Part shown: positions 642 to 27,194 of the stretch, piece after piece
Layout of the letters: each line of letters starts with the position of its first letter
Position numbering within the stretch: position 1 is the stretch's first letter
Assembly (NCBI GenBank): GCA_963781845.1
Contig: CAWAHN010000014.1
Coordinates: 16,285 to 80,284, forward strand
Direction of reading: 5' to 3'
DNA length: 64,000 nucleotides
Source: an uncultured Chloroflexia bacterium
GTDB lineage: Bacteria; Chloroflexota; Limnocylindria; Limnocylindrales; CSP1-4
Position numbers and translations under genes: made by a program
The notes under the pieces: generated by a model
Databases searched by the model: none
Told to the model about the DNA's origin: nothing
Seen by the model: the letters and a program-made list of their open reading frames with translations, nothing else

Positions 642-3756
<3,115 letters not shown>

Positions 3757-11927: not shown

Positions 11928-11942
11928 TCGGCCGGTGGTACG

Positions 11943-13136
11943 ATGCCCGCCGCCATGAGTCGAAACCAGACCCCGGAGGGTCCTGACGGATCCCCGCCGG
12001 CCGGTCCGTGGAAGACCGTGCGCTTCCTCGTCCGGGGCTACACCCGGCGTCTCCCGGGCGATCGGGGTGACGCGGCGCTGTCGATGTTCCACGACGCCCG
12101 CGGCCTCGTCACCGGGCACCGAGCGACGGCGGCCCGCCCTGGCGACCCGCCGATCGATCCCGCGACGCTCCTGCGCGCGGAGCGGGCGCTGGCTCGAGGC
12201 GACCTCGACGCGGCCTGGTCGCAGTCGAGCGCGATCCTCGACGACCGGCCCGACAGCATGGCGGCGCTGACCATCCGGCGGATCGTCCTCGAGCGGCGCG
12301 GAGAGCCGACATCGGTGCTGGCGACGATCCGGACGATGCGGTCGGTCCTCGACACGCCCGAGCTCGCACGAGACGAGCGGGTCGCGGTCGGTCGCCTGTT
12401 CGAGACCGATCCGCGCTGGTCGCCCCGCATCGCCGGCCCACGGCGCCCGATCGAGTCGCCGCATCCGGGCGTCGTGATGCATCTCGTCGCCGGCCCGCCG
12501 GCCGATCCGGCTGGATCGAGCGGGTCGCCGACCGCGGACCGGATCGTCGCGGAGCGAGCGGCCGGCCTGGATCCCCTGGCCGTCGGCCCGGTCGAGGCGG
12601 GATCGAGCGGTCCGGTCGGGAAGGGTCCGGTCGGGTCGGCGCCGACCGTCGAGGGAACCGCGGTCCACCGGCTCGAGCTCGGGCCCGCCTGGTCGCCGGA
12701 CGGACCGCCCGACCTCGCGCTGATCGAGACCGCGTGGCTGGCCGCTCGGGTCGGACGGAGCGCTCGACCGGCGGTCGTGGTCGCGGGAGCGGGCGGTCGC
12801 GGCTTCGCCACGATGCTCGTCGGCGTCGCACTCCGCGGTCACCTGGGCATCCCGCTCGTGATCGACGCCCCGGTCGCGGATCCGTCGGTGCCACCCGGTT
12901 CCGAGCAGGCCATCCGCGCCCGAGCGACGGAGGATCGCTGTCTGGCCGTCGCCGACGCGGTGATCGCCCCGAACGACGATGCGCGACGAGACCTCATCGA
13001 GCGAGGGGTCGCCGCCGAGCGGATCGCGATCGTCGACGACAGCGCGTCGCGCGAGGAAGTCGGCGCCGCACGACGCGCGGTCTACGCGACGGTCATCGGC
13101 GGACGACCGTCCGGCGACGCGCAGCCGGCGCGATGA
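11943..13136 (+). CDS. Hypothetical protein with a helical N-terminal region and a C-terminal segment resembling a GT-B N-domain end (ADAVIAPNDDARRDLIERGVAAERIAIVDD).
   Basis: 397-aa ORF with GC3-rich codon usage, in-operon between GT genes. No catalytic C-terminal GT domain is present. Confidence 0.5.
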   Translation: MPAAMSRNQTPEGPDGSPPAGPWKTVRFLVRGYTRRLPGDRGDAALSMFHDARGLVTGHRATAARPGDPPIDPATLLRAERALARGDLDAAWSQSSAILDDRPDSMAALTIRRIVLERRGEPTSVLATIRTMRSVLDTPELARDERVAVGRLFETDPRWSPRIAGPRRPIESPHPGVVMHLVAGPPADPAGSSGSPTADRIVAERAAGLDPLAVGPVEAGSSGPVGKGPVGSAPTVEGTAVHRLELGPAWSPDGPPDLALIETAWLAARVGRSARPAVVVAGAGGRGFATMLVGVALRGHLGIPLVIDAPVADPSVPPGSEQAIRARATEDRCLAVADAVIAPNDDARRDLIERGVAAERIAIVDDSASREEVGAARRAVYATVIGGRPSGDAQPAR

Positions 13137-14320
13137 GCGCGCGAACGTCCGGCCGGGTCCTGCTCGAAGCGCTCGCTGCCGCGCGCCGTCTCGATGCGCT
13201 CGGCCACGAGCCGCCGACGGTCCTGGCCGTCCACCCGACCTCCACCAACCCGTTCCAGGCGCTGACCTACCGCCGGGCCTGGGAGAACGGGATCGGCCCC
13301 GTCCCGATGCGACGGTGGGACGAGCTCGATGAGCTGCTGCCGCTGCCGGGTCTCGGCATCCGCACGATCCTCCACCTCCACTGGACCCACGCCGTCCTGG
13401 CCCGGGCCGCCGATGAGGCAGCCGGCCGGGTCGCCATCGCAGCGTTCCTCGCCCGACTCGACCGCTTCCTCGACGCCGGCGGGCGACTGGTGTGGACCGT
13501 CCATAACGTGCTCCCGCATGACGTTCGGTTCCACTCCCTCGAGGCCGAGCTCCAGCAGGCGGTCGTCGACCGGGCGGCGGCGATCCACATCCTCGCAGCC
13601 GGCACGATCGATGCGACCGCCGACTGGTTCACGATCCCACCGGAGCGCGTCGTCCACGTCCCGCTGCCGAGCTATCGGGGCGCGTACGCCGACATCTACT
13701 CGGCCGACGAGGCCCGCCACCGCCTGGGGATCGATCCGGACGATGTCGTCTACGGGCTCGTCGGCCGGATCAAGCCGTACAAGGGCCTGACCGCGCTGCT
13801 CGACGCGTTCGACCGGCTGATCGAGGCCGACCCTCGACCACGCCGGCTGCTCATCGCCGGTCCGCCGGATCAGGCACCGGCGACGGCTGCCTTCCTCGAG
13901 CGAGCCGGGACGCACCCGCGGGTCACCATCCATGCCCGGAACTTCCCCGACGACGAGATGCAGCTGTTCCTCCGAGCGACGGATCTAGCCGTCCTGCCCT
14001 ACGAGGACGTGCTGAACTCGAGCGTGCTGTTCCTGGCCCTCACCTTCGGTCTGCCGGTCATCGTTCCGTCGGCGGGTGGGATCGGTGAGGAGATCGCGCC
14101 CGCGTTCGGGCGCACGTTCGTCCCGGGCGATCCGGACTCCTTGGTCGCGGCCCTGCGCGCCGGCGACGAGCTGCTCGAACCATCGGCGCGCGAGACCGCC
14201 CGTAAGGCCGCGCTGGCCGTCGCCGCCGAGCACGATCCGGATGTGCTCGGCGAGCGCTTCGCGCGCGAACTGCTCAGCCGCGTCTACGGCGACCCCGTGC
14301 TACCCTACGGCGGCTCATGA
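13133..14320 (+). CDS. Glycosyltransferase (GT-B fold, group-1-like).
   Basis: Internal start MSARTSGRVLLEAL, ATGA-coupled to the upstream stop. N-domain ILHLHWTH, C-domain GRIKPYKGLTALLDAF...LPYEDVLNSSVLFLALTFGLPVIV. The 133-aa N-terminal extension in the track ORF was rejected. Confidence 0.7.
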   Translation: MSARTSGRVLLEALAAARRLDALGHEPPTVLAVHPTSTNPFQALTYRRAWENGIGPVPMRRWDELDELLPLPGLGIRTILHLHWTHAVLARAADEAAGRVAIAAFLARLDRFLDAGGRLVWTVHNVLPHDVRFHSLEAELQQAVVDRAAAIHILAAGTIDATADWFTIPPERVVHVPLPSYRGAYADIYSADEARHRLGIDPDDVVYGLVGRIKPYKGLTALLDAFDRLIEADPRPRRLLIAGPPDQAPATAAFLERAGTHPRVTIHARNFPDDEMQLFLRATDLAVLPYEDVLNSSVLFLALTFGLPVIVPSAGGIGEEIAPAFGRTFVPGDPDSLVAALRAGDELLEPSARETARKAALAVAAEHDPDVLGERFARELLSRVYGDPVLPYGGS

Positions 14321-15174
14321 CCGTTTCAACCAACGAGGCGATCGCCTCCACGCGCCCCCGCGCGCAGCGAGCTGGCATGGTGGCGCTGGTCCGGTCGGGC
14401 ATCGGCGAGATCATCGCCCGGCGACGGCTGACCCGCTACCTCGTCGGGGCGGAGCTCAAGCGGACGCACGCCGATACCGCCTTCGGCCAGATCTGGTGGG
14501 TCCTCGACCCGCTCCTCCAGATGATCGTCTACGCCTTCGTGGTGACGGTCATCTTCCAGCGCAAGACGCCGGACTACCCGCTGTTCGTGTTCGCTCCGAT
14601 CCTGGCCTGGAAGTGGTTCAGCGCGACGCTCAACGAGGCGGCCCTGTCGGTGACCGGGCGCCAGCAGCTCATCCGCCAGATCCAGTTCCCCAAGCTCGTC
14701 CTGCCCGCATCGGCGGTCGTTGCCGGCACGGTCAGCTTCGCTTTCGGGCTGATCGCGCTGGGCATCGTCTACCTGTTCTTCCTGCCACGCCTGAGCCTGT
14801 GGGTCCTGACCATCCCGATCATCGCCTTCGTCCAGTTCGTGTTCACCCTGGCGCTCGGGATCCTGTTCGCCGCCGCGAATGCCTTCTTCCGCGACATCCA
14901 GAACGTCATGCATCACCTCCTGCGGCTGTGGTTCTACCTGTCGCCGGCGCTGTACTCCCTCGACGACCTCGCGAAGTCGCATCCGTCCTTGTACACGCTC
15001 TTCTCGCTCAACCCGATGGCCGTCCTGCTCGACTCGTATCGCTCGGTCACCTGGGGCATGGGGCCGCCGAACTGGTTCGGCCTGGGCATCGTCCTGGTGC
15101 TGTCCGCACTGCTGGTGCTCGTGGCGATCTACTTCTTCAAGCGCGCCGAGCCGGCGTTCGCGAGGATCCTGTGA
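14317..15174 (+). CDS. ABC-2 type polysaccharide/teichoic-acid export permease (Wzm/TagG/KpsM family).
   Basis: 285 aa with 6 predicted TM helices and a typical ABC-2 signature region. Its start overlaps the upstream GT stop. Confidence 0.85.
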   Translation: MTVSTNEAIASTRPRAQRAGMVALVRSGIGEIIARRRLTRYLVGAELKRTHADTAFGQIWWVLDPLLQMIVYAFVVTVIFQRKTPDYPLFVFAPILAWKWFSATLNEAALSVTGRQQLIRQIQFPKLVLPASAVVAGTVSFAFGLIALGIVYLFFLPRLSLWVLTIPIIAFVQFVFTLALGILFAAANAFFRDIQNVMHHLLRLWFYLSPALYSLDDLAKSHPSLYTLFSLNPMAVLLDSYRSVTWGMGPPNWFGLGIVLVLSALLVLVAIYFFKRAEPAFARIL

Positions 15175-16037
15175 CCACCGTCGATCCGGTCATGGATCCG
15201 ATGCGGCCGACGGGCCTCGCGACGGTCGAGGAACGGGCGGTCGAGGTGGTCGACCTCGGCATCCGCTACGACCTGCGACTCACCAAGCGGACGACGCTCA
15301 AGGGCTCGCTCGGCGGGATGCTCCGCCGGAGCCACGGCGGCGAGAACCACTTCTGGGCCCTGCGCCACCTGTCGTTCACGCTCGACCAGGGCGAGTCGCT
15401 GGCGGTCATCGGCCCGAACGGCGCCGGCAAGAGCACGCTCCTGCTCGCCCTGGCCGGCATCCTCCAGCCGTCCGAGGGCGCGGTCCTCAGCCACGGCCGG
15501 GTGTCGACCCTGCTCACCCTCGGGGCAGGCTTCGAGGTCGAGCTGACCGGACGGGACAACATCGACCTGGTCGGCGCGTTCCTCGGGATCGACCAGGGCC
15601 AGATGGACCAGCTGACCCCGTCGATCATCGAGTTCGCGGACATCGGCAAGTTCATCGATGCCCCGGTCAAGACCTACTCGGCCGGGATGAAGGCGCGACT
15701 CGGCTTCTCGATCGCCACCGCGGTCACGCCGGACATCCTCCTGCTCGACGAGGTCCTCGGGACCGGCGACCAGACGTTCCGGGCGCGCAGCCAGGCCCGC
15801 GTCCGCGAGCTCGTCGGGAAGGCCAAGGCGATCGTCCTGGTCACCCACGACCTGACCTTCGTGAGCGAGTTCTGCAACCGGGCGATCCTGCTCGAGCGTG
15901 GCGGGATCATCGAGGAAGGCGAGCCGGAGGCGATCGTCGATCTCTATCGCGAACGGGTCGCCCAGCGCAGGCTCCTCGCCGAGGAGGACGCTCAGCGCTT
16001 CGCGGTCGTGCCCGACCGCAGTGCCGCCAACGGCTGA
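15171..16037 (+). CDS. ABC transporter ATP-binding protein (Wzt/TagH/KpsT family).
   Basis: Walker A GPNGAGKST, signature YSAGMKARLGF, Walker B ILLLDEV. The GTG start overlaps the permease stop (GTGA). No C-terminal carbohydrate-binding extension is present. Confidence 0.85.
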   Translation: MTTVDPVMDPMRPTGLATVEERAVEVVDLGIRYDLRLTKRTTLKGSLGGMLRRSHGGENHFWALRHLSFTLDQGESLAVIGPNGAGKSTLLLALAGILQPSEGAVLSHGRVSTLLTLGAGFEVELTGRDNIDLVGAFLGIDQGQMDQLTPSIIEFADIGKFIDAPVKTYSAGMKARLGFSIATAVTPDILLLDEVLGTGDQTFRARSQARVRELVGKAKAIVLVTHDLTFVSEFCNRAILLERGGIIEEGEPEAIVDLYRERVAQRRLLAEEDAQRFAVVPDRSAANG

Positions 16038-16070
16038 GGACGTCCCGAGCCGGGCCGGCCGACCGGTCCG

Positions 16071-16847
16071 TCAGTCCTCGAGCCGGCGCAGGAACCCGCT
16101 TCGGCAATAGGTCGTGGTAAGCCGCTCGTACGAGCGGTCGATCTCGAACTCGGGGTGCGCCGCCAGGTATTCCCGGACCGCCTCGAGCGGGTTGTCGTCA
16201 TGCCAGGTCGGCTGGCCGTTGGGTGCGTCCGCGACCATCGGCATGACCTCGTCGAAGACGATCATGTAGCTGCCCGGCGTCACCATCGGGCCGTACAGCT
16301 CGAGCTCGCGCAGGACGTGGGCCCGGGTGTGATTCGAATCGAGCATGACCATGGTCGTCTGGCCCGGAGCGATCAGGTCGCGGACGGAGGCGACGGTCGT
16401 CGGATCGGTCGAGCTGCCCTCGATCAGGCTGATCCGGCGGGCCATCGGGTGGCTCTCGATGGCCAGCCGGTTGTACTTGCGGATCTCGATGTCCACCCCG
16501 ATCACGCGGCCGCGCCCGAGCAGCTCGAGGATCGAGGCGTAGAGGATCAGGGCGCCGCCGTGGGCGACCCCGCTCTCGATGACGACATCGGGGCGCAGCT
16601 TCCAGACCAGCTCCTGGACCATCACGATGTCCTCGGGAAGCTGGATGATCGGGATGCCCAGCCAGGTGACCTCGTAGGACAGCTTGCGCTGCCAGCCGGA
16701 CCGGGTGAACAGGTCCGCGACCACCGCGAACCCCTCCGGCGTGTAGATGTCGACCTCGCGGGGACCGTCCTCGGTCCGGATCGTGATGACCCGGTCCGGC
16801 TGCGTTCCGCTGTCCGTCACGATCGGTCCTCCAAGCGACTGCGCCAC
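16071..16847 (-). CDS. CmcI-family (cephalosporin-hydroxylase-like) class I SAM-dependent O-methyltransferase, rhamnosyl-O-methyltransferase-like.
   Basis: 258 aa. IESGVAHGGALILYASILELLGRGRVIGVDIEIRKYN is the CmcI Rossmann core. It is the last gene of the CDP-sugar operon. Confidence 0.65.
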   Translation of the reverse strand: MAQSLGGPIVTDSGTQPDRVITIRTEDGPREVDIYTPEGFAVVADLFTRSGWQRKLSYEVTWLGIPIIQLPEDIVMVQELVWKLRPDVVIESGVAHGGALILYASILELLGRGRVIGVDIEIRKYNRLAIESHPMARRISLIEGSSTDPTTVASVRDLIAPGQTTMVMLDSNHTRAHVLRELELYGPMVTPGSYMIVFDEVMPMVADAPNGQPTWHDDNPLEAVREYLAAHPEFEIDRSYERLTTTYCRSGFLRRLED

Positions 16848-17707
16848 CAGGCGATCGTCTCATCGATGCCGGCTGGGAGATCGCGCGTCGGTCGCCAGCC
16901 CAGACCGAGCAGCGGCCGCGGATCGCCCGGATGGGCATAGCCGTCGTCCCCGATCGGGCCGAGGGCGCCGAGGCGAAGCAGATCGGGTCGACCGGTGCGG
17001 TCGGCGATCGTCCGGAAGACGTCCGCCAGGGTCACCGGTGAACCCGAGCAGATGTCGACCCCACCGGTCAGGGTGGTCCCGGCAAGGGTACAGAACGCGG
17101 CGGCCACATCGGCGACGTACAGGTAGTCCCGCGGTCGCTGGCCGTCGGTCGTCGCGATCTCCTCCCCGGCGACGAGCGCGCGGATCACCGCCGGGATCAC
17201 CCGACGCCGGTCCTCACCGGGCCCGTAGAGATAGAACACGTGCCCGCAGGCGACCGACACGCCCGACGACGAGACGCCCTCCGACAACCGGTGGAGCGCC
17301 CCCTTGGCCGCCTCGTAGATCCGGGGTCGGGGTTCGGCGGCGTTCTCGAGGCAGGTCCCGCCGAGCACGACCCGCGGGCATCCGCCTTCGGCCGCGGCCA
17401 GGAGGAGCCCGACCGAGGCCTCCAGCGACGCGAGGTTCTCGGCCAGCGCATCACGATAGCGGCCCGGCTCGGCGTACCAGGCGAGGTGGATGACGGCGTC
17501 GGGCCGGATCTCGCCGAGCAGCGCCATCAGGCGCGACCGGTCCGCCAGATCCGCCTCGACGCGGTCGACCCGGCTCCCGAGGTCGTCGAGGCGCGCGGCC
17601 ACCGACCCGGGCCGAACGAGGGCGACGGGGTGGTCTCCCCGTGAGAGCAGCTCGCGAACGACGTGCGCGCCGATGAACCCGGCGGCCCCGGTCACGAGGA
17701 CCTTCAT
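16817..17707 (-). CDS. NAD(P)-dependent sugar epimerase/reductase (extended SDR), likely the 4-ketoreductase of the CDP-sugar pathway.
   Basis: MKVLVTGAAGFIGAHVVRELL, YxxxK (YEAAKGAL), 296 aa. Confidence 0.8.
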   Translation of the reverse strand: MKVLVTGAAGFIGAHVVRELLSRGDHPVALVRPGSVAARLDDLGSRVDRVEADLADRSRLMALLGEIRPDAVIHLAWYAEPGRYRDALAENLASLEASVGLLLAAAEGGCPRVVLGGTCLENAAEPRPRIYEAAKGALHRLSEGVSSSGVSVACGHVFYLYGPGEDRRRVIPAVIRALVAGEEIATTDGQRPRDYLYVADVAAAFCTLAGTTLTGGVDICSGSPVTLADVFRTIADRTGRPDLLRLGALGPIGDDGYAHPGDPRPLLGLGWRPTRDLPAGIDETIAWWRSRLEDRS

Positions 17708-18162
17708 CAGTGCTGCCGGATGTCCCAGTCGTACGGGATGTCGTTATCGAACGGATCGAGCCGGATCGACCGCGCCGGGTCGTGCGGATGGGTCGAGCAG
17801 TTGGCGACGATGGCCGCCCCCGGCCCCATCCCCTTGAACCCGTTCCAGACCCCCGGCGGGACCTGGACGAGACTGTAGTCGTCGGGACCCAGGAACCGCT
17901 CCATGACCTCGCCCCGCGATGGGGACCCGTCGCGATCGTCGTACAGGACCAGCTTGATGCGGCCGTGCACGCAGACGTAGTTGAGGGTCATCTCGGCATG
18001 CTTGTGCCAGCCCTTGACGACACCCGGATACACGGTCGAGAAGTAGATCTCGCCGAATCCAAGGAACTCGGGATCCGTGGCCTTGAGCATGTGCATGACC
18101 GTGCCGCGTTCGTCCGGGATCCGGGCGCGGGGCACGATGCGCACTCCATCGATCATCGTCAC
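17707..18162 (-). CDS. Cupin-fold sugar epimerase/isomerase (RmlC/FdtA superfamily); the G-x-H-x-H motif (KGWHKH) favours an FdtA/QdtA-type 3,4-ketoisomerase over a RmlC-type 3,5-epimerase.
   Basis: 151 aa. GEIYFSTVYPGVVKGWHKHAEMTLNYVCVHGRIKLVLYDD. The stop overlaps the start of the downstream reductase. The ATG overlaps the C-methyltransferase stop (ATGA). Confidence 0.65.
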   Translation of the reverse strand: MTMIDGVRIVPRARIPDERGTVMHMLKATDPEFLGFGEIYFSTVYPGVVKGWHKHAEMTLNYVCVHGRIKLVLYDDRDGSPSRGEVMERFLGPDDYSLVQVPPGVWNGFKGMGPGAAIVANCSTHPHDPARSIRLDPFDNDIPYDWDIRQH

Positions 18163-19397
18163 ACCAGCTGCGGGTCCGGGATCGGGATGAGGAACCGCCC
18201 GCCGCGCTCACGGTACTCGGTCTGTTGCGCAAGGATCTCGTCGGCGAAGTTCCAGGCGAGCAACAGGCAGACGTCCGGCATGGCTCCGACGAGCCGCTCC
18301 GCGGGCACGATCGGGATGTGCACGCCGGGCATGAAGCGGCCCTCCTTGTACGGGCTCCGATCCGCGACGAAGTCGATCGTCTCGGTCCCGATCCCGAAGG
18401 CGTTGAGCAGGACCGTTCCCTTGGCCGCGGCTCCGTAGGCGGCGACCGTCCGGCCCTCGGTCCGGAGCTCGCCGATGAGGGCGAGCAACTTCCGTCCCAG
18501 GGTCTCCACGCGAGTCGCGAATTCGAGGAAGTAGGCGGGCGTGGTCAGGCCGAGGACACGCTCCTCCTCCAGGAGTGCCGCGACGGCCTCGGACGATCCG
18601 TCGGCGCCGACCGACCCGGAGGCGCCGGAGTGGCGGACGAAGATCCGAAGCGAGCCCCCGTGAACGGGTAACCGCTCGACACCCACGACGGCCAGGCCGG
18701 CGCGGTCGAAGATCCGTTCGAGCGCGCTCAGCGAGTGGTAGTAGCGATGCTCGTGGTAGATCGTGTCGAATTCGAGCCGCTCGACCAGGTCCCTGACGTA
18801 GGGGGTCTCGATCACGGCGACGCCGTCCGGCTTGAGGATCAGTCCGATCCCGGCCACGAACCCATCGAGATCCGGCACGTGAGCGATGACGTTGTTGGCA
18901 TGGACGACGTCGGCCGACTGCCCCGAGTCGACCAGCTTCCGAGCGAGCTCCGGGTCGAAGAACTCGGCGACCGTGGGCACCCCGCGGGCCATGGCGGCGG
19001 AGGCGACGTTCCGGGCCGGATCGATGCCCAGGACCGGGATCCCGACGGCCGCGTAATGCTGGAGCAGGTAACCGTCGTTGCTGGCGATCTCGACGACGAG
19101 GCTGTCGCGGGTCAGCTGGCGGGTGGAGATCATCCGGTTCGCGCTGAGCCTGGCGTGCTCGACGAACGCCTCGGACACCGACGAGAAGTAGGCATACTCG
19201 CGGAACATCTGCTCGGGCGGCACCGGCTCGGTGATCTGGACCAGGCCACAGGCCGGGCAGATCGCCAGCGTCAACGGGAAGCGCGGCTCGGGATCGTCGA
19301 GCGTCTCACGGGTCAGGAGCGCGTTGGCCAGCGGCTGGTCACCGAGGGACAGGACCGGGACGAGTCCGGCACCGCAGCTCCCGCACGCCGCGGTCAC
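18159..19397 (-). CDS. NDP-hexose C-methyltransferase (TylC3/NovU family; zinc-binding N-domain plus SAM-MTase plus C-MT C-terminal domain).
   Basis: GTG start VTAACGSCGAGLVPVLSLGDQPLANALL, overlapping the rfbG stop (GTGA). A second Cys pair CPACGLVQ follows. ~412 aa. The 148-aa N-terminal extension in the track ORF was rejected. Confidence 0.8.
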   Translation of the reverse strand: MTAACGSCGAGLVPVLSLGDQPLANALLTRETLDDPEPRFPLTLAICPACGLVQITEPVPPEQMFREYAYFSSVSEAFVEHARLSANRMISTRQLTRDSLVVEIASNDGYLLQHYAAVGIPVLGIDPARNVASAAMARGVPTVAEFFDPELARKLVDSGQSADVVHANNVIAHVPDLDGFVAGIGLILKPDGVAVIETPYVRDLVERLEFDTIYHEHRYYHSLSALERIFDRAGLAVVGVERLPVHGGSLRIFVRHSGASGSVGADGSSEAVAALLEEERVLGLTTPAYFLEFATRVETLGRKLLALIGELRTEGRTVAAYGAAAKGTVLLNAFGIGTETIDFVADRSPYKEGRFMPGVHIPIVPAERLVGAMPDVCLLLAWNFADEILAQQTEYRERGGRFLIPIPDPQLV

Positions 19398-20392
19398 TGC
19401 GGCGACGCCGCAAGGTAGGTCCGATACCAGGCGATCGTCTCGCGGAGTCCCGATGCGAGCGTCGAACGAGGGCGCCACCCGAGCTCGCGCCGCGACCGTG
19501 CCGCCGACACCCGCTGGACGGGGATCTCGTGAAGGGGCTCGGCAAGGATGCGGGGTGCGAGCTTGGAGTCCATCAGGTCGACGATCCGGTCGACCATCTC
19601 GAGCACCGTCAGCCGCTGACCCGCCGCGAAGTTGAACGGCCGACCGCGCAGCTCGGGCCGCCGCCCGACCTGGTCGGCCAGGGCGAGGGTCCCGCTGGCC
19701 GCATCGCGGACGAACAGGTAGTCGCGGAGGAACGTCCCGTCGGACCGGATGACCGGCCGCTCCCCGCGCACGATCGATCTGATCGTGCCCGGCACGATGC
19801 GGCTCCAGTTCAGGTCGCCCCCGCCATACAGGTTCGCGCAACGAGTCACGGCGACGGGCGAGCCGTAGGCCTGGGCGTACGTCTGGGCGAGCAGGTCCGC
19901 GGCGGCCTTCGACGTGTCATACGGGTGACCGGGGCGGAGGGCCATCGTCTCCACGTACGGGCGGCCCGCGGCGTCGCCATAGGCCTTGTCCGAGGAGGCG
20001 ACGACGATCCGGGCGACGCGCGGCTGAGCGCGGCACGCCTCGAGGATCGTCCAGGTCCCCTCGATGTTGTGGCTGAACGTGTCGACCGGATCCCGGAGCG
20101 CGGGACCGACCAGGGTCTGCGCGGCGAGGTGGATCACCGAGTCCACGGCCTCGGCGCGGAGGATCCGATCGACCGTCGTCCGGTCGCGAACGTCGCCCAG
20201 CACGCGGACCAGCCCGGGGACGGCGTCCGCGTCGTCGTCCGGCCAGGCGATATCGAGACCGAGCACCGTCGACCCGGATCCGGCCAGCTCGCTGGTGACC
20301 GCCCGACCGAGGAGCCCCGCCGCCCCCGTCACCAGGACGCGGCGACCGGCCCAGCCATCGTCGCGCTCGGCACTCAATCCCAGGTCACCCAC
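19394..20392 (-). CDS. rfbG: CDP-glucose 4,6-dehydratase.
   Basis: RRVLVTGAAGLLGR Rossmann motif, YDTSKAA (YxxxK), and LYGGGDLNWSRIVPGTIRS, which is diagnostic of the DdhB/RfbG family. 332 aa. Confidence 0.85.
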   Translation of the reverse strand: MGDLGLSAERDDGWAGRRVLVTGAAGLLGRAVTSELAGSGSTVLGLDIAWPDDDADAVPGLVRVLGDVRDRTTVDRILRAEAVDSVIHLAAQTLVGPALRDPVDTFSHNIEGTWTILEACRAQPRVARIVVASSDKAYGDAAGRPYVETMALRPGHPYDTSKAAADLLAQTYAQAYGSPVAVTRCANLYGGGDLNWSRIVPGTIRSIVRGERPVIRSDGTFLRDYLFVRDAASGTLALADQVGRRPELRGRPFNFAAGQRLTVLEMVDRIVDLMDSKLAPRILAEPLHEIPVQRVSAARSRRELGWRPRSTLASGLRETIAWYRTYLAASPQ

Positions 20393-21144
20393 GGCGCCGT
20401 CCGGGCCGCCCAGAGCGACCGGAGGTAGCGGACGTCACGGAGGGTGTCCATCGGCTGCCAGAACCCTTCGTGGGCGAAGCCCATCAGCTGTCCGCGCTGA
20501 GAGAGCCCTTCGAGGACGTCGGCTTCGAGGCTGGTCGAGTCGGTCGGGATCGAACCGACGACCTCGGGCTCGAGGACCATGAACCCGCCGTTGATCCAGC
20601 CCTCGCCGATCTGGGGCTTCTCGGTGAACGTGACGGTTCGATCCTCACCGAACGACAGCCCGCCGAACCGAGCCGGCGGCCGGACGGCGGTCACGGTCGC
20701 CAGTCGGCCGGACGCGCGGTGGAACGCGAGGAGCGCCTGGAGGTCGACGTCCGCGACCCCGTCGCCGTAGGTGAGCATGAACGCCTCGTCGCCGAGCCAC
20801 GGCGCCAGTCTGGCGACACGACCGCCGGTACCGGTGTCCGCGCCGGTGTCGACCAGGTGGACGGTCCACGCATCCTTGTCCCGGTCATGTCGATCGACGG
20901 TCCCGACCCCCGTCCTGACGGTCAGGCTGCCGCTCAACGCGAGCGTGTCGACGAAGAAGCGCTTGATGTCGTCGCCCTTGTACCCGAGGGCCACGACGAA
21001 CTCGGTGAAGCCGGCCTGGGCGTAGTGCTTCATGATGTGCCACAGGATCGGACGGTCCCCGATCTCGACCATCGGCTTCGGCCGAACCTCGGTCTCCTCG
21101 GCGAGCCGTGACCCGAGACCGCCGGCTAGGATGACAACCTTCAC
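20374..21144 (-). CDS. rfbF: Glucose-1-phosphate cytidylyltransferase.
   Basis: (V)KVVILAGGLGSRLAEETEVRPKPMVEIGDRPILWHIMKHY aligns to RfbF/DdhA across its whole length. The start is GTG (plus-strand 'cac' at 21142-21144). Confidence 0.9.
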   Translation of the reverse strand: MKVVILAGGLGSRLAEETEVRPKPMVEIGDRPILWHIMKHYAQAGFTEFVVALGYKGDDIKRFFVDTLALSGSLTVRTGVGTVDRHDRDKDAWTVHLVDTGADTGTGGRVARLAPWLGDEAFMLTYGDGVADVDLQALLAFHRASGRLATVTAVRPPARFGGLSFGEDRTVTFTEKPQIGEGWINGGFMVLEPEVVGSIPTDSTSLEADVLEGLSQRGQLMGFAHEGFWQPMDTLRDVRYLRSLWAARTAPWVTWD

Positions 21145-21226
21145 GCTCCGATTATGCCCCAGCGGCCGGCGCTTCCCCGAGGGCGGCGCCCGGATCGACG
21201 TCGGGCTCGCGTGGGGAAGGCGATCG
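21145..21226. promoter_or_regulatory. Divergent intergenic region between the rfbF operon (minus) and the MTase/GT2 genes (plus).
   Basis: 82-bp gap between divergent CDS starts. Confidence 0.3.
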
Positions 21227-22198
21227 ATGACAGACCTCGACCAGAACCCGAAGAGCGACCTCGCACGACCGTCGAAGTTCTGGGCCGCCCTCGGAGGACG
21301 GCACGCGCAGGACGTGACCGAGCACGGCTACGACGCCCTCAAGCGACGCCAGGCACTCCGCTACTTCACCTGGAGCTGGCACCTGCGATCGATCCTCGGC
21401 AGCGAGCAGATGCGCCATCTCCTGCGTCGCACCCCGGTGACCGCGTGGCTCCGATCGGCGTTCACGCCGTTCGCGATCCGCGGTCGCTCGTGGGCTCCGC
21501 TGGACTGGTCGATCGCCGACCGCTGGCTGTACACGGCGGCGGTCAGATTGCTGTGGGAGTACGCGCTGATCCATGGCGACCGCGACGTCCTTCGCCTGGC
21601 GGAGCCGTTGGAAGGCGACCCACTGCCGGTCTCGTACCGAGGTCGGTTGATCTCGCAGGACCTCGCCAACTCCGCTCTGGAGGTCGCCGCGATGCGGCGC
21701 ATCCTCGAGGGACGGTCGCCGCAGTCGATCCTCGAGGTCGGCGCAGGATACGGGCGGACCGCGTACGTCCTGCTGTCGGTCTATCCGAGCTCGACGTACA
21801 CGATCGTCGATATCGAGCCGGCGCTCAGCATCTCGCGCTGGTACCTGAGCCGGCTGTTCCCGTCCGACCGACTCCGATTCCTGACACCGGACCGGGTCGA
21901 CGAGGTGGCCGGCGGGTCCGTCGATCTGGCGGTATCCATCTCCTCCCTCCAGGAGATGACCCCCGGCCAGGTCCAGGGGTATCTCGGATTCATGGATCGG
22001 GTCGCCGCCGGCGGTCGCGTCTACCTGAAGCAGTGGGCGACCTGGCGCAACCCCGACGACGGCGTGACCATGCGGTTCTCGGAGTATCCGGTGCCGTCAG
22101 CCTGGATGGCGACCCTCCGCGAGGCGGCGCCGGTCCAGGAACGCTTCGTTCAGGCCGGCTGGCTCGTTCCGCATCCGTCCGCGGCCGGGACCTCGTGA
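21227..22198 (+). CDS. Class I SAM-dependent methyltransferase (putative sugar O-methyltransferase family).
   Basis: Start MTDLDQNPKSDLARPSKFW. SAM motif ILEVGAGYGRTAYVL. 323 aa. The 65-aa N-terminal extension in the track ORF was rejected. Confidence 0.6.
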   Translation: MTDLDQNPKSDLARPSKFWAALGGRHAQDVTEHGYDALKRRQALRYFTWSWHLRSILGSEQMRHLLRRTPVTAWLRSAFTPFAIRGRSWAPLDWSIADRWLYTAAVRLLWEYALIHGDRDVLRLAEPLEGDPLPVSYRGRLISQDLANSALEVAAMRRILEGRSPQSILEVGAGYGRTAYVLLSVYPSSTYTIVDIEPALSISRWYLSRLFPSDRLRFLTPDRVDEVAGGSVDLAVSISSLQEMTPGQVQGYLGFMDRVAAGGRVYLKQWATWRNPDDGVTMRFSEYPVPSAWMATLREAAPVQERFVQAGWLVPHPSAAGTS

Positions 22199-22217: not shown

Positions 22218-23234
22218 ATGACCCCGCTCGGTCGACGCCACGTCAGCATCGGACTGCCGACCCGGAACGGCGAGCGCTATATCGCGGAGGCGCTGACCTC
22301 GCTGCTCGGTCAGGACCATCGCGAGTGCGACATCGTCGTGGCCGACAACGCGTCGACGGACCGGACCCCGGACATCGTCCGCGAGATCGTGCGCCGGGAC
22401 GGCCGTGTCCGCCACGAACGGGTCGAGCTGCCGCTGAGCGCGGCGCAGAACTTCAACCGGGCATTCGAGCTGACCGATGGGCCCTCGTTCATGTGGGCCG
22501 CCGACGACGACCGCTGGGACGCCTCGTATGTCGGCCGCTGCCTCGCCGCGCTCGAAGACGATCCCCGGGCCGTGATGGCGACCTCTGGACTTCGCTTCAT
22601 CGACCCGGACGGGGCGGCCATCGATGCCGACTACTCCCGCTACGACAACCCCGACCTCTCGTCCGCATCGACCGTCGAGCGCGTCAGGCGCCTCCTTCGA
22701 CGAGGGGGCTGGTACCAGATCTACGGGGTCGCGCGGCGCGAGGCCCTCGAAGGGACCCGGCTGTTCCAGGACGTCTACGGCCCGGACGTCGTCCTGACCC
22801 TCGAACTGGCCCTGGCCGGCCCGATCCTGCGCGTGCCCGAGGTGTTGTTCTGGTACCGGCGATTCCCGGGTCGCACCGAAGCGGTTCGGGCGAGTCGCCA
22901 GGGCGGCATCCGCGACGAGCTCGACGTCGCGAGCTCGCCTTCGACCCATCTCCAGGAATCGCTGTCCGACGCCGTGCGGGCGTCGACACTGGCCGCTCCG
23001 TTGAAGCTCCGCCTCCTCGCCGAGATCCTCGACGCGTTCTACGTCGAGGACACGCCGATCCGGTCGAGGGCCAGATCCGAGGCTTGGCGGCGGGCCAGGA
23101 CCGCCGCGCGCGATCGGGATGTCGGGCGGTTCGTGAAGTTCAGCCTGGCCCACGGCCTCGATCGACTCGACGATCTCTCGGGCGAGGGGCGTCGATCCGC
23201 TCGGCGCATCGGGCGGAGGCTGGCACGCCGATGA
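22218..23234 (+). CDS. Glycosyltransferase family 2 (GT-A).
   Basis: VSIGLPTRNGERYIAEALTSLLGQDHRECDIVVADNASTD (a DxD-type GT2 N-terminus), 338 aa. Confidence 0.8.
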   Translation: MTPLGRRHVSIGLPTRNGERYIAEALTSLLGQDHRECDIVVADNASTDRTPDIVREIVRRDGRVRHERVELPLSAAQNFNRAFELTDGPSFMWAADDDRWDASYVGRCLAALEDDPRAVMATSGLRFIDPDGAAIDADYSRYDNPDLSSASTVERVRRLLRRGGWYQIYGVARREALEGTRLFQDVYGPDVVLTLELALAGPILRVPEVLFWYRRFPGRTEAVRASRQGGIRDELDVASSPSTHLQESLSDAVRASTLAAPLKLRLLAEILDAFYVEDTPIRSRARSEAWRRARTAARDRDVGRFVKFSLAHGLDRLDDLSGEGRRSARRIGRRLARR

Positions 23235-23244: not shown

Positions 23245-24579
23245 TCAGCCTCCGGGCCCGACCCCGATCCGTCGGTAGACCTCGACGAGCGTCTCCACCT
23301 GGCGCTCCCAGGCATACCGTTCGGCCGCCGCGAGCGACGCCTCGCGGAACGCCAGCCGCCGCTCCGGCGGCCCGTCGAGGACCTCCCGCAGCGCGCCGGC
23401 GATCGCGCCCGGGTCGGTCGGATCGACCAGGATGCCGCAGCCCGCCGGACGCACGATCGAGGCGATCCCAGGGAGGTCCGACGCGACCACCGGGAGGCCG
23501 GCGCCCAGCGCATCGAACAGCCGGGTCGGTGTCGTCAGGCGGTGGTTGAGCGTCGTCGGCTGGATCGCGATCGCGGCGACGTCGGCGGCGGCCGTCCAGG
23601 CGGCGATGTCCTCCGGCGGGACGCCCGGCAGGAAGTGGATCCGGTCCCTTGCCGGCAGGGTCGCGGCATCGGCGACGAGCCGGTCGCGGAAGGCATCGCC
23701 CGGCCCGACGATCAGCAGCGCGGCGTCGGGGACGTCGGCGATCGCCCGGCAGAGCTGCTCGACGCCGCGGCCCGGGGCGACGTTGCCGAGGCACAGGACG
23801 ATCCGCGTCGACGGCGCGAGCCCGAGGCGTTCCCGGACCGGCTCCGGCTGGGGCATGGAGGGGACCCGTGCCTCGGCACCGACGCCGACCGGTCCGTTGA
23901 CCACGACCGCGGGTCGCACCCCGAGCGTGCGGACGATGACGTCGGCATACGCCTGGTTGGCGGTCAGCACGGCGTCGGCCGATCGCGCCCAGCGCCGCTC
24001 CCGGCGGGCGAGCAGCCGGCGCCACGGCCCGGGCAGCCGCGCGAACCGCGAGCTCTCGACCTGGAGGTCGCGCACGTCGTAGACGACGCGACCGCCGCTG
24101 CGCTTGCGCAGGGCCAGCGCGACCGGCAGGGTGATCAGGCCTTCGGCCTGCCAGACATCGGCCCCCGGCGCGACGACGGCGATCCGGTCCGCCCACTGAC
24201 GCGCCAGCAGGAGGTAGCGCACCGCCTGGATCGGCCGACCGACCACTGTCGTGACCGTCGCCCTGAGGCGCGACCGACGGGGCGCCACCGGGGCCGAGGG
24301 AGCCGCGACGGCCGAGGGCGCGCCACCTCGATCGGCCTCGGGCAGGCGCGGGCTCGGCAGCCATGGCAGCGGGCGCGGCTGGGCGACCCGGACGAGCAGG
24401 AACCCGTCGCGCTCCTCCCGGTCGGGCAGGCCGTCGGCCGTCCGCGCGACCACCGTCACGGACCAGCCCGCCGCCCCCAGGCTACGCGCGATCTTCCACG
24501 AGCGCGAGTCCGACACGAACGGGTTGTTGAGGAGCAGGACGAGCCTGCGCGCCGGGCCCGGACCTTCATTCGCGCTCAC
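23245..24579 (-). CDS. Glycosyltransferase family 4, paralog 2 of 3.
   Basis: GTG start VSANEGPGPARRLVLLLNNPFVSDSRSWKIARSL, overlapping the upstream GT stop (GTGA). C-terminal TTPTRLFDALGAGLPVVASDLPGIASIV. The upstream part of the track ORF is Arg/Gly junk. Confidence 0.75.
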   Translation of the reverse strand: MSANEGPGPARRLVLLLNNPFVSDSRSWKIARSLGAAGWSVTVVARTADGLPDREERDGFLLVRVAQPRPLPWLPSPRLPEADRGGAPSAVAAPSAPVAPRRSRLRATVTTVVGRPIQAVRYLLLARQWADRIAVVAPGADVWQAEGLITLPVALALRKRSGGRVVYDVRDLQVESSRFARLPGPWRRLLARRERRWARSADAVLTANQAYADVIVRTLGVRPAVVVNGPVGVGAEARVPSMPQPEPVRERLGLAPSTRIVLCLGNVAPGRGVEQLCRAIADVPDAALLIVGPGDAFRDRLVADAATLPARDRIHFLPGVPPEDIAAWTAAADVAAIAIQPTTLNHRLTTPTRLFDALGAGLPVVASDLPGIASIVRPAGCGILVDPTDPGAIAGALREVLDGPPERRLAFREASLAAAERYAWERQVETLVEVYRRIGVGPGG

Positions 24580-25952: not shown

Positions 25953-27073
25953 CGCGGGGCGTGCGTCGATCGGGCCGGGGATCGGGCCGGCACACGGACC
26001 GGCTCGCGCACGTGGCGACCCACCGCCCCCTGGACCGCGGCGATCACCCGCTGCTGATCGTCGATCGTCAGGCCGGCGTACATCGGCAGGCCGAGCGAGC
26101 CGTCGGCGGCCGCGTCGGTGATCGGCAGCTCGGCATGGATGCCCCGCTCGAGGACGTAGGGCTGGCGATGGATCGGGACCGGGTATTCGATCGCGACCTC
26201 GACCCCGTGATCGGCGAGGTCCGCGGCCACGTCGTCGCGAGCCGGCCCCAGGCCGATCGTGTACCGATGGAACACGTGGCGTCGGCCGACCGGCACGAGG
26301 GGCCGACGGATCGGCAACGCGGCGAACGCAGCGCCGTAGCGGGCGGCGATCGCCCGCCGGGCGAGGATCCCGGGTTCGATCCGGTCGAGACCGACCAGGC
26401 CGATCGCGGCGGCGACCTCGGACAGGTGGAAGTCGAAGCCGAGGATCTCCGCTTGCCGTCCGCGCCGACCGTGGTCGCGATAGCGACGGATCCAGTCGGC
26501 CAGCCGATCGTCGTCGGTGCTGACCAGGCCGCCCTCGCCGGCGCCGTAGAGCCCGAAGGCCCCGTGCCCCCACGAACCGGCGCGCCGACCCCGGAACGTC
26601 GCCCCGTGGGCGCCGCCGCCATCCTCGACGACGGCCAGCCCATGGCGGTCGGCGATGGCCGTGATCATGTCCATGTCGGCGACCAGACCGTGCAGGTGGA
26701 CGGGGTAGATCGCCCGGGTCCGGGGCGTGATCGCCGCCTCGATCCGGGCCGCGTCGATCAGGTACGTGTCGGGCTCGATGTCGATGAAGACGGGGCTTGC
26801 GCCGGTGAACAGGATCGAGCTGACGGTGGCATTGACCGTGTGGCTGACCGTGATGACCTCGTCACCGGGGCCGATCCCGAGGCCGGCCAGGATGCACATC
26901 CTGGCGACCGTGCCGTTGACGACCGCGACCGCGTGACGGACCCCGACGAACTCGGCCCAGCGCGCTTCGATCTCGGCGACCCGCCGACCGGGGACCGTCG
27001 ACCGCGACAGGAGCGCCTCGGCGACGGCCTCCGACTCCTCCCGCCCGACATCGGGTCGCACCGCCGGGATCAT
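25949..27073 (-). CDS. DegT/DnrJ/EryC1/StrS-family (PLP-dependent sugar aminotransferase fold) protein with an apparent deletion of the PLP-lysine loop.
   Basis: MIPAVRPDVGREESEAVAEALLS... DEVITVSHTVNATVSSI... AHGATFRGRRAGSWGHGAFGLYGAGEGGLV. The canonical FSFYPxKNLGAxGDGG region is six residues shorter here and has no Lys. This was verified on the DNA (ggcacggggccttcgggctctacggcgccggcgagggcggc). Confidence 0.75.
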   Translation of the reverse strand: MIPAVRPDVGREESEAVAEALLSRSTVPGRRVAEIEARWAEFVGVRHAVAVVNGTVARMCILAGLGIGPGDEVITVSHTVNATVSSILFTGASPVFIDIEPDTYLIDAARIEAAITPRTRAIYPVHLHGLVADMDMITAIADRHGLAVVEDGGGAHGATFRGRRAGSWGHGAFGLYGAGEGGLVSTDDDRLADWIRRYRDHGRRGRQAEILGFDFHLSEVAAAIGLVGLDRIEPGILARRAIAARYGAAFAALPIRRPLVPVGRRHVFHRYTIGLGPARDDVAADLADHGVEVAIEYPVPIHRQPYVLERGIHAELPITDAAADGSLGLPMYAGLTIDDQQRVIAAVQGAVGRHVREPVRVPARSPARSTHAPR

Positions 27074-27194
27074 CTGCACGCTCGCGCCGCGTGCCGACGG
27101 ATCGATCACGGAGCCTCCGGTGGTGCCTGGGTCGGCAGCGGGAACCAGCCTCGAGGTCACCGCCGACCGAACCTCGAGTATAGCCTCGGACGGG

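Follow-up and report, generated by a model that had tools for sequence, protein, structure and literature searches.

Six tightly overlapping genes in a Limnocylindria (Chloroflexota) MAG, not an actinomycete, probably encode a self-contained route to a CDP-6-deoxy-3-C-methylhexose, which is probably O-methylated and used, via neighbouring glycosyltransferases, for a surface glycan exported by Wzm/Wzt. This gene module is widespread, the operon being one of its copies, and has already been annotated or mutated in Synechocystis, on Sinorhizobium meliloti pSymB and in Azotobacter vinelandii (at least rfbFGC). The operon and its flanking genes, in the 64,000-nucleotide stretch of DNA that was analysed (the window), are as follows.

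20374..21144, minus strand: rfbF/ddhA, glucose-1-phosphate cytidylyltransferase, first gene of the operon (TIGR02623, 1tzf)
19394..20392, minus strand: extended SDR, probably a CDP-glucose 4,6-dehydratase that is related to RfbG but short and non-canonical (PF01370/PF16363)
18159..19397, minus strand: TylC3/TcaB9/KijD1-family NDP-hexose C-methyltransferase (C-MT; PF08421, PF13489, PF08484; PDB 5t64)
17707..18162, minus strand: RmlC/FdtA-like short cupin, 149–151 aa, probable CDP-4-keto-sugar epimerase (PF00908, PF05523, 3ejk)
16817..17707, minus strand: second extended SDR, probable NDP-4-keto-6-deoxyhexose 4-ketoreductase (PF01370, 108.9 bits)
16071..16847, minus strand: CmcI/rhamnosyl-O-methyltransferase-family methyltransferase (PF04989, 243.3 bits)
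14317..15174, plus strand: Wzm-type ABC-2 permease, convergent with the operon (PF01061)
15201..16037, plus strand: Wzt/TagH-type ABC ATPase, 278 aa (PF00005; TagH/Wzt NCBIfam models, 174–204 bits)
21227..22198, plus strand: putative sugar O-methyltransferase, divergent (TIGR04371, 97.6 bits, cut-off 44)
22218..23234, plus strand: GT2 glycosyltransferase, candidate transferase for the CDP-sugar (PF00535, 73 bits)

The initial annotation had read positions 21144→16071 as an operon of six genes with these identities and without an E1/E3 3-deoxygenation pair, and this reading is borne out. All six open reading frames are present on the minus strand, each with a strong family match. Junction inspection revealed a 19-nt overlap between rfbF and the first SDR gene, which recurs in homologous loci, a GTGA overlap between the first SDR and C-MT genes, GTGA or a 2-nt gap between the C-MT and cupin genes, a TGATG overlap between the cupin and second SDR genes, and GTGA at the last junction. 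All five junctions fit translational coupling. The CmcI-family gene probably starts at GTG 16820 and not at 16847, which gives a 4-nt overlap as in its homologues. The database gene call of the cupin is 149 aa, and its start is therefore placed at 18156; rfbF starts with GTG, with GGAG 5 nt upstream. The window ORFs that were scanned include no E1/E3-type gene; the closest DegT-family gene scores 132 bits against the RfbH model (cut-off 423).

RfbF passes the TIGR02623 equivalog model of NCBIfam (336.8 bits, cut-off 300.25) and aligns over its full length with 1tzf from Salmonella (E 1.6e-81), which marks it as cytidylyl- and not thymidylyl-type. Neighbourhoods were counted in the 83 fetched loci that hold the closest C-MT relatives; an RfbF homologue is found near the C-MT in 68 of them, and RmlA in none. 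The window contains a complete rmlABCD operon (36578..40083), whose rmlB scores 378.7 bits (cut-off 365.1), and gmd in another operon (1562..2569). CDP as the carrier, proposed initially in place of dTDP, is thus well supported by the cytidylyltransferase family, the RfbF linkage and the separate rmlABCD and gmd operons. The C-MT may itself be CDP-specific, judging from gene linkage only. Its biochemically characterised relatives all use dTDP sugars, and most loci of its closest relatives are RfbF-linked.

The first SDR, initially called a CDP-glucose 4,6-dehydratase, keeps the Asp135-Lys136 dyad but is not a canonical RfbG, as the protein falls under both equivalog cut-offs (dTDP model, 170.8 of 365 bits; CDP model, 161.1 of 278 bits). 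Its S133-S134-D135-K136 lines up with TSDKCY in the CDP-glucose 4,6-dehydratase of Yersinia (1rkx), while the dTDP enzymes have STDEVYG. GGGD…RIVP and Y158xxxK162 are common to the first SDR and 1rkx, and a homologue from locus L010 (50% identical) scores best on TIGR02622 (214.6 bits). In the loci that we term class II, this slot is occupied by a GalE-like SDR without the acid/base dyad.

The C-MT contains the zinc-binding PF08421 (72.7 bits), SAM-binding PF13489 (71.5 bits) and C-terminal PF08484 (188.5 bits) domains. It matches KijD1 (5t64, 1.2e-90; 41% identity), the D-mycarose 3-C-methyltransferase 4rv9, which we take to be MtmC, and TcaB9 (3ndi). CGSC (residue 5) and CPAC (residue 47) are both present, and Cys5/8/47/50, Y68, H173, Y214, E216 and H217 are kept in 80–84 of 84 relatives. 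The three-domain architecture and these residues confirm a TylC3-type enzyme, not an ordinary O- or N-methyltransferase. C-3 is the probable methylation site, as in all structurally characterised relatives, in a family where C-3 and C-5 enzymes are indistinguishable from sequence.

The cupin carries KGWHKH, as first noted, and matches PF00908 (50.9 bits), PF05523 (FdtA; 23.6 bits, cut-off 23) and PDB 3ejk (3e-32). H53 aligns with the catalytic His of RmlC and forms an FdtA-like HxH motif with H55; the RmlC Lys and Tyr are replaced by Thr and H127. The corresponding position in sister cassettes is taken by a canonical RmlC-like gene that retains the His, Lys and Tyr. The second SDR contains TGAAGFIG, T118 and Y131xxxK135, and 33 of the 83 loci have a homologue (33–64% identity) downstream of the C-MT. 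The CmcI-family enzyme matches CmcI (2bm8, 5.8e-10) and scores 91 bits on NF045824, under the cut-off; it is 76% identical in Limnocylindrales cassettes and found in 36/83 loci.

In the proposed pathway, RfbF supplies CDP-glucose, a step that is well supported. The Asp-Lys-type SDR would convert CDP-glucose to CDP-4-keto-6-deoxy-D-glucose, as its motifs and operon position suggest. The TylC3-type enzyme, whose family is established, would deprotonate the carbon beside the 4-keto group, presumably C-3, and add a methyl group from SAM. The short cupin would epimerise the remaining acidic centre, C-5, to an L-series sugar; it is assigned as a C-5 epimerase because its slot is positionally equivalent to canonical RmlC-like genes. 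The second SDR would reduce the 4-keto group, and the CmcI-family enzyme would O-methylate a hydroxyl, whether the sugar is still CDP-linked or has already been transferred. We infer the stereochemistry, the methylation site and the timing of O-methylation. CDP-vinelose (CDP-6-deoxy-3-C-methyl-2-O-methyl-L-talose), a classical A. vinelandii metabolite, is like the proposed product a CDP-linked, C- and O-methylated 6-deoxyhexose, and the six proposed activities are exactly what it, or a stereoisomer, would require. It is reportedly known only chemically (Okuda/Suzuki, 1967–68), and we know of no genes assigned to it. Our literature search for vinelose returned no paper, and no assayed enzyme of an RfbF-linked C-methyl pathway was found in the searchable literature. 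An A. vinelandii rfbF-rfbG-rfbC cluster is credited to Hausman 1998, as cited in PMC3769361.

Methylation at C-5 within the same CDP pathway, as by NovU in noviose biosynthesis, is unlikely; it would give a 5,5-gem-dimethyl (5-C-methyl-6-deoxy) sugar once the cupin had epimerised C-3 and the 4-keto group had been reduced. The noviose set NovT/W/U/S/P comprises a 4,6-dehydratase, a cupin, a TylC3-family C-MT, a 4-ketoreductase and an O-methyltransferase, which the operon formally equals, and NovU belongs to the same family, where Pfam cannot tell C-3 from C-5 enzymes. However, the solved relatives matched by the C-MT are all C-3 methyltransferases, and to our knowledge the methyl branch is at C-3 both in CDP-vinelose and in the C-methyl sugars known from cell-surface glycans. 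It is quite improbable that the cupin is a 3,4-ketoisomerase (FdtA/QdtA-like) that forms a CDP-3-keto-6-deoxyhexose, which the C-MT would methylate at C-2 or C-4 and the second SDR would reduce as a 3-ketoreductase. The FdtA-like shortness, the HxH motif with the weak PF05523 match and the missing RmlC Lys and Tyr favour this assignment, but PF00908 scores far higher, H53 lines up with the RmlC catalytic His, the orthologous cassettes carry a canonical epimerase in this slot, and we know of no TylC3-family enzyme that acts on a 3-keto sugar.

The island's rml and gmd genes could also supply the C-MT with a dTDP- or GDP-4-keto-6-deoxyhexose, with RfbF and the first SDR making an unrelated CDP-sugar. 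Although both gene sets lie in the same window and the biochemically characterised relatives use dTDP sugars, we consider this very unlikely: the C-MT and CDP-type SDR genes are coupled through a GTGA overlap, RfbF accompanies the relatives in 68 of the 83 loci and RmlA in none, and the RfbF-linked C-MTs are at least 43.7% identical to one another and each at most 43.3% to KijD1. A first SDR acting as a 4-oxidase or epimerase, so that the product keeps its 6-hydroxyl (CDP-3-C-methylhexose), is likewise very improbable; the missed dehydratase cut-offs and the GalE-like SDR of class II loci would agree with it, but D135-K136, Y158xxxK162 and GGGD…RIVP match 1rkx, and the L010 homologue is best on TIGR02622.

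The preferred CDP-3-C-methyl pathway resembles the dTDP pathways of TylC3 (mycarose), MtmC, TcaB9 (tetronitrose) and KijD1 (kijanose) in the three-domain C-MT fold family (E 1e-82 to 1e-90, 41% to KijD1), the conserved Zn-Cys4 and catalytic Tyr/His/Tyr/Glu/His, and the predicted methylation beside the 4-keto group ahead of the epimerase and ketoreductase steps. In contrast, the carrier here is CDP, for which the operon has its own RfbF and a dehydratase of the Asp-Lys type; the substrate would retain its 2-OH, the cupin is short and His-rich, and the locus is a surface-glycan locus and not an antibiotic cluster. The nogalose pathway (epimerase, C-MT, 4-ketoreductase and O-methyltransferases) is also comparable. 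The CDP-3,6-dideoxyhexose pathways of Salmonella and Yersinia (Rfb/Ddh/Asc) begin as the operon does, with RfbF and then a CDP-glucose 4,6-dehydratase-type SDR, whereas the operon has no E1 (PMP-dependent dehydrase) or E3 reductase, and a C-methylation branch would replace 3-deoxygenation. For GDP-virenose of Coxiella burnetii and GDP-evalose, TylC3-like C-3 methylation is predicted in an O-antigen context (PMC3539893, PMC3204966); as here, a 4-keto-6-deoxyhexose keeps its 2-OH, whereas the carrier derives from GDP-mannose and the pathway is an in silico prediction only.

In Campylobacter jejuni HS:41, a CDP-6-deoxy-L-altrose/CDP-D-fucose pathway (HS41.21–HS41.17) has been proven biochemically to run from CDP-glucose synthase through CDP-glucose 4,6-dehydratase and a cupin 3,5-epimerase to an NADPH-dependent C4-reductase (PMC12369002). 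Like the operon it has no E1/E3. The operon's C- and O-methyltransferases have no counterpart in it, and its last step is carried out by a pyranose/furanose mutase. Synechocystis PCC 6803 slr0977–slr0985/slr1610 contains wzm, wzt, rfbF, rfbG, rfbC and a putative C-3 methyltransferase (PMC3769361, PMC12285223). Compared by description, slr0983–0985/slr1610 beside wzm/wzt correspond to our cytidylyltransferase, dehydratase, cupin and C-MT, whereas neither a dedicated reductase nor CmcI is listed for the published cluster, whose cupin is of the canonical RfbC type. Deletion of the C-methyltransferase phenocopies the adjacent wzm/wzt deletions (PMC3769361), and rfbC is dispensable for rhamnose synthesis (PMC12285223). 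S. meliloti SMb21416–SMb21418 are annotated as ddhA, ddhB and an NDP-hexose 3-C-methyltransferase (PMC4053727, PMC5539429), and ddhB mutants have altered LPS (PMC5539429). In this class II locus, an RfbF homologue accompanies a C-MT of 51.6% identity, and the GalE-like SDR has no Asp-Lys dyad; unlike the operon, the locus has a second C-MT paralogue next and no cupin, reductase or CmcI.

Calling the arrangement unusual, as was done initially, was an overstatement, because RfbF-linked C-MTs are the rule among the closest relatives, and RfbF–SDR–C-MT modules are spread over more than 12 phyla. All six functions are found together in ten loci from three phyla, and Limnocylindrales contigs have the identical six-gene order with convergent Wzm/Wzt. 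Since the host is a Limnocylindria MAG, the suggested cell-wall glycan is better described as an ABC-transporter-exported surface glycan. The Wzt/TagH-type ATPase, which has no C-terminal carbohydrate-binding domain, has its stop codon 33 nt from that of the CmcI-family gene, and a convergent Wzm/Wzt pair also flanks the cassette in loci L001–L003. In L005, a 52%-identical homologue of the divergent O-methyltransferase directly follows CmcI. GT2 genes 43–64% identical and divergent from rfbF are present in L001–L005, which makes the glycosyltransferase a conserved neighbour of the cassette.

The window carries six open reading frames that are arranged head-to-tail on the minus strand, from 21144 to 16071, as revealed by inspection of its ORFs:

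20374..21144, minus strand: glucose-1-phosphate cytidylyltransferase (RfbF/DdhA), TIGR02623 equivalog
19394..20392, minus strand: extended SDR (first SDR), PF01370/PF16363
18159..19397, minus strand: C-methyltransferase (C-MT), PF08421 zinc domain with PF13489 and PF08484
17707..18162, minus strand: 151-aa cupin, PF00908 and, marginally, PF05523/FdtA
16817..17707, minus strand: second extended SDR, PF01370
16071..16847, minus strand: CmcI-family methyltransferase, PF04989

From rfbF to the CmcI gene, neighbouring genes meet in a 19-nt overlap, then in GTGA, GTGA (alternatively a 2-nt spacer), TGATG and finally GTGA; the last of these requires the CmcI gene to start at 16820, as seen in homologous loci. 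The initial annotation had described this co-directional, coupled operon accurately, and the family match scores are far beyond chance. The GC content is approximately 70–74% throughout the window, with no compositional break at the operon. The window MreB has its closest named relatives, at 84–86% identity, in Candidatus Limnocylindria/Limnocylindrales and Chloroflexota, which places the DNA in an uncultured Limnocylindria bacterium; an actinomycete origin, as 72% GC would suggest, was rejected on this ground. A scan of 15800..21500 for promoters and terminators returned none, which is uninformative for a Chloroflexota genome of 70% GC. As is typical for high-GC DNA, spurious long ORFs occur on both strands (18159..19841 on the minus strand and many other places), and the C-MT frame is open for 444 nt upstream of its true GTG start; the true frames and starts were chosen by GC3 (~0.9) and the gene calls of homologues.

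RfbF scores 336.8 bits on the curated model TIGR02623 (cut-off 300.25) and at most 45 bits on the rmlA models, and its residues 2–256 align end to end with residues 4–259 of the Salmonella glucose-1-phosphate cytidylyltransferase (1tzf; E 1.6e-81). At the level of sequence, the score above the cut-off and the full-length match bear out the earlier proposal of a cytidylyl-type nucleotidyltransferase, and the conversion of Glc-1-P to CDP-Glc is a well-supported prediction. Other features of the window are:

642..2569, minus strand: gmd (GDP-mannose 4,6-dehydratase) and a GDP-4-keto-6-deoxymannose reductase/epimerase-like SDR
6017..8523, minus strand: UDP-GlcNAc 2-epimerase and UDP-ManNAc dehydrogenase
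9406..14320 and 24576..25916: several GT4 genes
14317..15174, convergent with the operon: Wzm permease
15201..16037, plus strand, convergent with the operon: Wzt/TagH ATPase, 278 aa
21227..22198, upstream and divergent: putative sugar O-methyltransferase (TIGR04371, 97.6 bits; cut-off 44)
22218..23234, upstream and divergent: GT2
25949..27328: DegT aminotransferase (RfbH model, 132 bits; cut-off 423)
40083 to 36578, minus strand: rmlA-rmlB-rmlD-rmlC, complete dTDP-L-rhamnose operon (rmlB 378.7 bits; cut-off 365.1)
40985..42043, minus strand: MreB

Since the organism has separate dTDP-, GDP- and UDP-sugar genes, the presence of a dedicated RfbF in the C-MT operon is meaningful. Rhamnose is probably a constituent of the glycan built by the island. 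Four nucleotide carriers (GDP, UDP, CDP and dTDP) are represented in this glycan island, and the region 642..8523 on the minus strand also holds a GT4 and a PMT_2-type membrane glycosyltransferase.

The first SDR falls below the cut-offs of both curated dehydratase models, with 161.1 bits on TIGR02622 (CDP-glucose 4,6-dehydratase, RfbG/DdhB; cut-off 278.45) and 170.8 bits on the dTDP-dehydratase equivalog (cut-off 365.1), and is by score approximately equidistant from the dTDP- and CDP-glucose enzymes. Asp-Lys is the defining acid/base dyad of CDP-glucose 4,6-dehydratases in the structures from the Holden laboratory, while the dTDP enzymes have Asp-Glu. TSDKCY of the Yersinia CDP-glucose 4,6-dehydratase (1rkx) has its counterpart in S133-S134-D135-K136-AYG of the first SDR, and the dTDP enzymes show STDEVYG at this SSDKAYG position. 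The protein also has Y158xxxK162, and thus both the Tyr-xxx-Lys motif and the Asp-Lys dyad, and shares GGGD…RIVP with 1rkx. A dTDP-glucose 4,6-dehydratase is the top NCBIfam match by 10 bits, but this reading was rejected because of the Asp-Lys dyad and the bona fide rmlB elsewhere in the window. For a homologue that is 50% identical, encoded in L010 (one of the loci fetched around close C-MT relatives), TIGR02622 is the best model with 214.6 bits. We infer that the first SDR is a short, non-canonical CDP-glucose 4,6-dehydratase, although it formally fails curated membership; it would convert CDP-Glc to CDP-4-keto-6-deoxy-Glc.

The C-MT exceeds the cut-offs for all three domains of its architecture (PF08421, 72.7 bits; PF13489, 71.5 bits; PF08484, 188.5 bits) and contains the zinc cysteines C5, C8, C47 and C50. 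It matches three solved sugar 3-C-methyltransferases: KijD1 (5t64, 1.2e-90), to which it is 41% identical, the D-mycarose enzyme 4rv9, which we take to be MtmC, and TcaB9 (3ndi). Residues Y68, H173, Y214, E216 and H217 align with the active-site set of TcaB9, presumably Y76, H181, Y222, E224 and H225, when TcaB9 is mapped through KijD1 with an offset of 2. The active-site and zinc residues are kept in 80–84 of 84 relatives, the active-site set by itself in 83–84. With the domains, the Cys4 set and the active-site residues all present, the TylC3-type assignment made initially stands, and membership in the TylC3/TcaB9/KijD1 family is well supported by sequence. The enzyme is predicted to methylate an NDP-4-ketohexose at C-3 in a SAM-dependent reaction, and gene linkage is what points to CDP as the nucleotide of its substrate. 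It would thus turn CDP-4-keto-6-deoxy-Glc into a 3-C-methyl-4-keto intermediate, with C-3 as the likely position.

Exact-sequence look-ups with RfbF and with the C-MT gave no match. Searching a single genome of each GTDB species yielded 594 C-MT relatives. The best 80 of the 594 belong to Chloroflexota, Acidobacteriota, Planctomycetota, Verrucomicrobiota, Myxococcota, Pseudomonadota, Cyanobacteria and CPR lineages and include one archaeon; the top genome-collection match is a Chloroflexi MAG (71%). Limnocylindrales metagenome contigs contain the identical six genes in the identical order, preceded by a divergent GT2 and followed by convergent Wzt/Wzm. Using filtered tblastn with the window proteins, we compared 83 loci, and the S. 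meliloti pSymB locus was compared likewise by tblastn. An RfbF homologue lies at most 7 kb from the C-MT relative in 68 of the 83 loci, usually directly upstream with an SDR between, and tblastn detected no RmlA-type gene in these 83 loci. The RfbF-linked C-MTs share at least 43.7% identity with one another (mean 55.6%) and at most 43.3% with the dTDP enzyme KijD1. Class I comprises 35 loci with an Asp-Lys-type dehydratase (at least 40% identical), of which 31 have the cupin, 19 the reductase and 23 the CmcI gene. Class II comprises 32 loci that encode a GalE-like SDR without the dyad, with one or two extra C-MT paralogues in 19; the 14 remaining loci are left unclassed, mostly because the contig ends. 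Ten loci combine all six functions; they belong to three phyla, Chloroflexota, Planctomycetota (among them the cultured Gemmata algarum) and Pseudomonadota (Salinarimonas). The initial annotation had seen in the predicted sugar an unusual cell-wall glycan constituent. The finding is real and the proposed biochemistry largely right, but as a gene module the arrangement is neither rare nor new; the window operon itself is one ordinary member of the RfbF-linked C-MT module family.

In the class II loci, RfbF is followed by the GalE-like SDR and the C-MT, and these by a GT2 and one or two C-MT paralogues in tandem (22–29% identity). Their SDR has 'SSCSNYG' with neither an Asp-Lys nor an Asp-Glu dyad, and its best NCBIfam model is galE (94 bits). 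Examples are L084 (S. meliloti pSymB 685580-704788), L037, L041, L056, L057, L065, L066, L070, L072 and L082. The class II loci may make a CDP-sugar that is C-alkylated more than once or is not of the 6-deoxy type.

The cupin is a short protein of the 3ejk type (E 3e-32); its family is large and strongly conserved, with more than 8000 matches and at least 79% identity among the best 120. It passes the PF00908 superfamily model (50.9 bits; cut-off 27) and reaches 27.6 bits on the RmlC equivalog TIGR01221 (cut-off 155.75). The catalytic residues of RmlC are only partly retained: in the alignments H53 corresponds to the catalytic His, while Thr takes the place of the enolate-stabilising Lys and H127 that of the catalytic Tyr. 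The sequence is equally open to a 3,4-ketoisomerase; an FdtA-like HxH (H53, H55) is invariant, and the score on the FdtA/QdtA model PF05523 is 23.6 bits (cut-off 23.0), far under that on PF00908. The decisive hint is positional. In the class I cassettes L010, L013, L019, L034, L038, L045 and L053, a canonical ~180-aa RmlC-like protein that carries RG(M/L)H(Y/F/W)Q…K(L/I)VR…(F/A)Y motifs fills the slot that separates the C-MT from the reductase. We infer that the cupin acts as an epimerase, which would convert the 3-C-methyl-4-keto intermediate to its C-5 epimer. Because C-3 has no proton after methylation, epimerisation is chemically possible at C-5 alone, which could explain why the reduced catalytic set of the cupin is tolerated. 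An AlphaFold2 model of the cupin, based on 23 of its close homologues, has a pLDDT of 55.8, too poor for fold comparison. In the closest solved homologue, 3ejk, a Lys (KAWKRH) stands at the position of the catalytic His of the window cupin (KGWHKH) and of RmlC; 3ejk and the window cupin agree in the second His and in having a His instead of the catalytic Tyr of RmlC.

The second SDR would reduce the C-5 epimer at C-4 to give a CDP-6-deoxy-3-C-methyl-L-hexose, and the CmcI-family enzyme would convert this sugar to an O-methyl derivative. The latter protein scores 243.3 bits on PF04989 (cut-off 23.2) and aligns with CmcI (2bm8) across residues 61–201, which places it in the CmcI/rhamnosyl O-methyltransferase family, characterised by SAM- and metal-binding motifs; on NF045824, the mycobacterial rhamnosyl O-MT equivalog, it reaches 91 bits (cut-off 400). 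As the initial annotation held, the E1/E3 3-deoxygenation pair is absent from the window ORFs scanned: the sole DegT-family gene among them is below the cut-off for E1 (RfbH/DdhC) and looks like an aminotransferase, and no Fer2/FAD-reductase gene for E3 (DdhD) was found. The conserved GT2 is a candidate transferase for the product, and the Wzm/Wzt pair next to the operon implies that the glycan depends on an ABC transporter. The Wzt beside the cassette in the Limnocylindrales contig L001 (12045..13340) has 431 aa and a weak Wzt_C carbohydrate-binding domain, whereas the 278-aa window Wzt lacks this C-terminal domain, which suggests that terminal-cap recognition may differ between otherwise syntenic loci.

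CDP-vinelose (CDP-6-deoxy-3-C-methyl-2-O-methyl-L-talose) was chemically described in the 1960s from A. vinelandii, and its synthesis from CDP-glucose presumably needs precisely the six activities of the operon. A literature search for 'vinelose' returned no papers. An rfbFGC cluster of A. vinelandii is mentioned in papers that cite its original descriptions (Gavini 1997, Hausman 1998). In C. jejuni HS:41, a CDP route without E1/E3 is proven, in which a cytidylyltransferase, a 4,6-dehydratase, a cupin 3,5-epimerase and a C4-reductase act in turn (PMC12369002). Synechocystis PCC 6803 has wzm…wzt-rfbF-rfbG-rfbC with a 'putative C-3 methyltransferase' (slr0977–0985, slr1610), and deletion of slr1610 gives the same phenotype as loss of the transporter genes and changes the EPS (PMC3769361). 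In 2025, slr0985 was shown to be dispensable for rhamnose synthesis and slr0983 was assigned to 'an alternative sugar pathway' (PMC12285223). On pSymB of S. meliloti, ddhA-ddhB are accompanied by an 'NDP-hexose 3-C-methyltransferase' (PMC4053727), which is 51.6% identical to the window C-MT, and ddhB mutants have altered LPS (PMC5539429). 3-C-methyl-rhamnose is part of a Burkholderia andropogonis O-antigen (PMC7203242). The literature searched contained no biochemical study linking CDP sugars with TylC3-type C-methyltransferases, and no identified sugar product or assayed enzyme for the RfbF-linked C-MT modules.

A tentative reading, which we hold to be rather unlikely, is that the cassette and its relatives in Chloroflexota, Planctomycetota, Pseudomonadota and elsewhere are the long-missing CDP-vinelose-type gene set, including a 5-epimerase of a new class and a sugar cap required to license export. 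If so, the C-MT would be the first CDP-specific member of the TylC3 family, the His/His short cupin would be a new 5-epimerase acting on a C-3-quaternary substrate, and the CmcI-type enzyme would O-methylate a nucleotide sugar. The hydrophobic sugar would then be a non-reducing-end cap that licenses Wzm/Wzt export, which would also account for the Synechocystis Δslr1610 phenotype. At the species level, RfbF-linked C-MT modules are present in hundreds of genomes from at least 12 phyla, including the models Synechocystis and S. meliloti, and the window operon is a compact, fully coupled six-gene version that offers a complete, testable enzyme set. Its reconstitution would tie genes to the CDP-linked C-methyl sugar of 1960s chemistry, explain why the Synechocystis 'rfbC' is dispensable in rhamnose synthesis and why methyltransferase loss mimics exporter loss there, and supply glyco-engineering with CDP-specific enzymes that C-methylate and epimerise sugars.

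The stretch that separates the rml operon from the glycan genes encodes, on the minus strand, two very large, probably secreted or surface proteins, one with GH18, FlgD_ig, Big_13 and CHU_C domains (29946..33224) and the other with FlgD_ig and CHU_C domains (33974..36304). A DUF3048 protein with both N- and C-terminal domains (28086..29024, plus strand) lies amid the glycosyltransferase genes. The island is flanked by the housekeeping genes mreB, mreC, guaA, IMPDH-like and UPF0182 (40031..42076 and 52397..59448, both on the minus strand).
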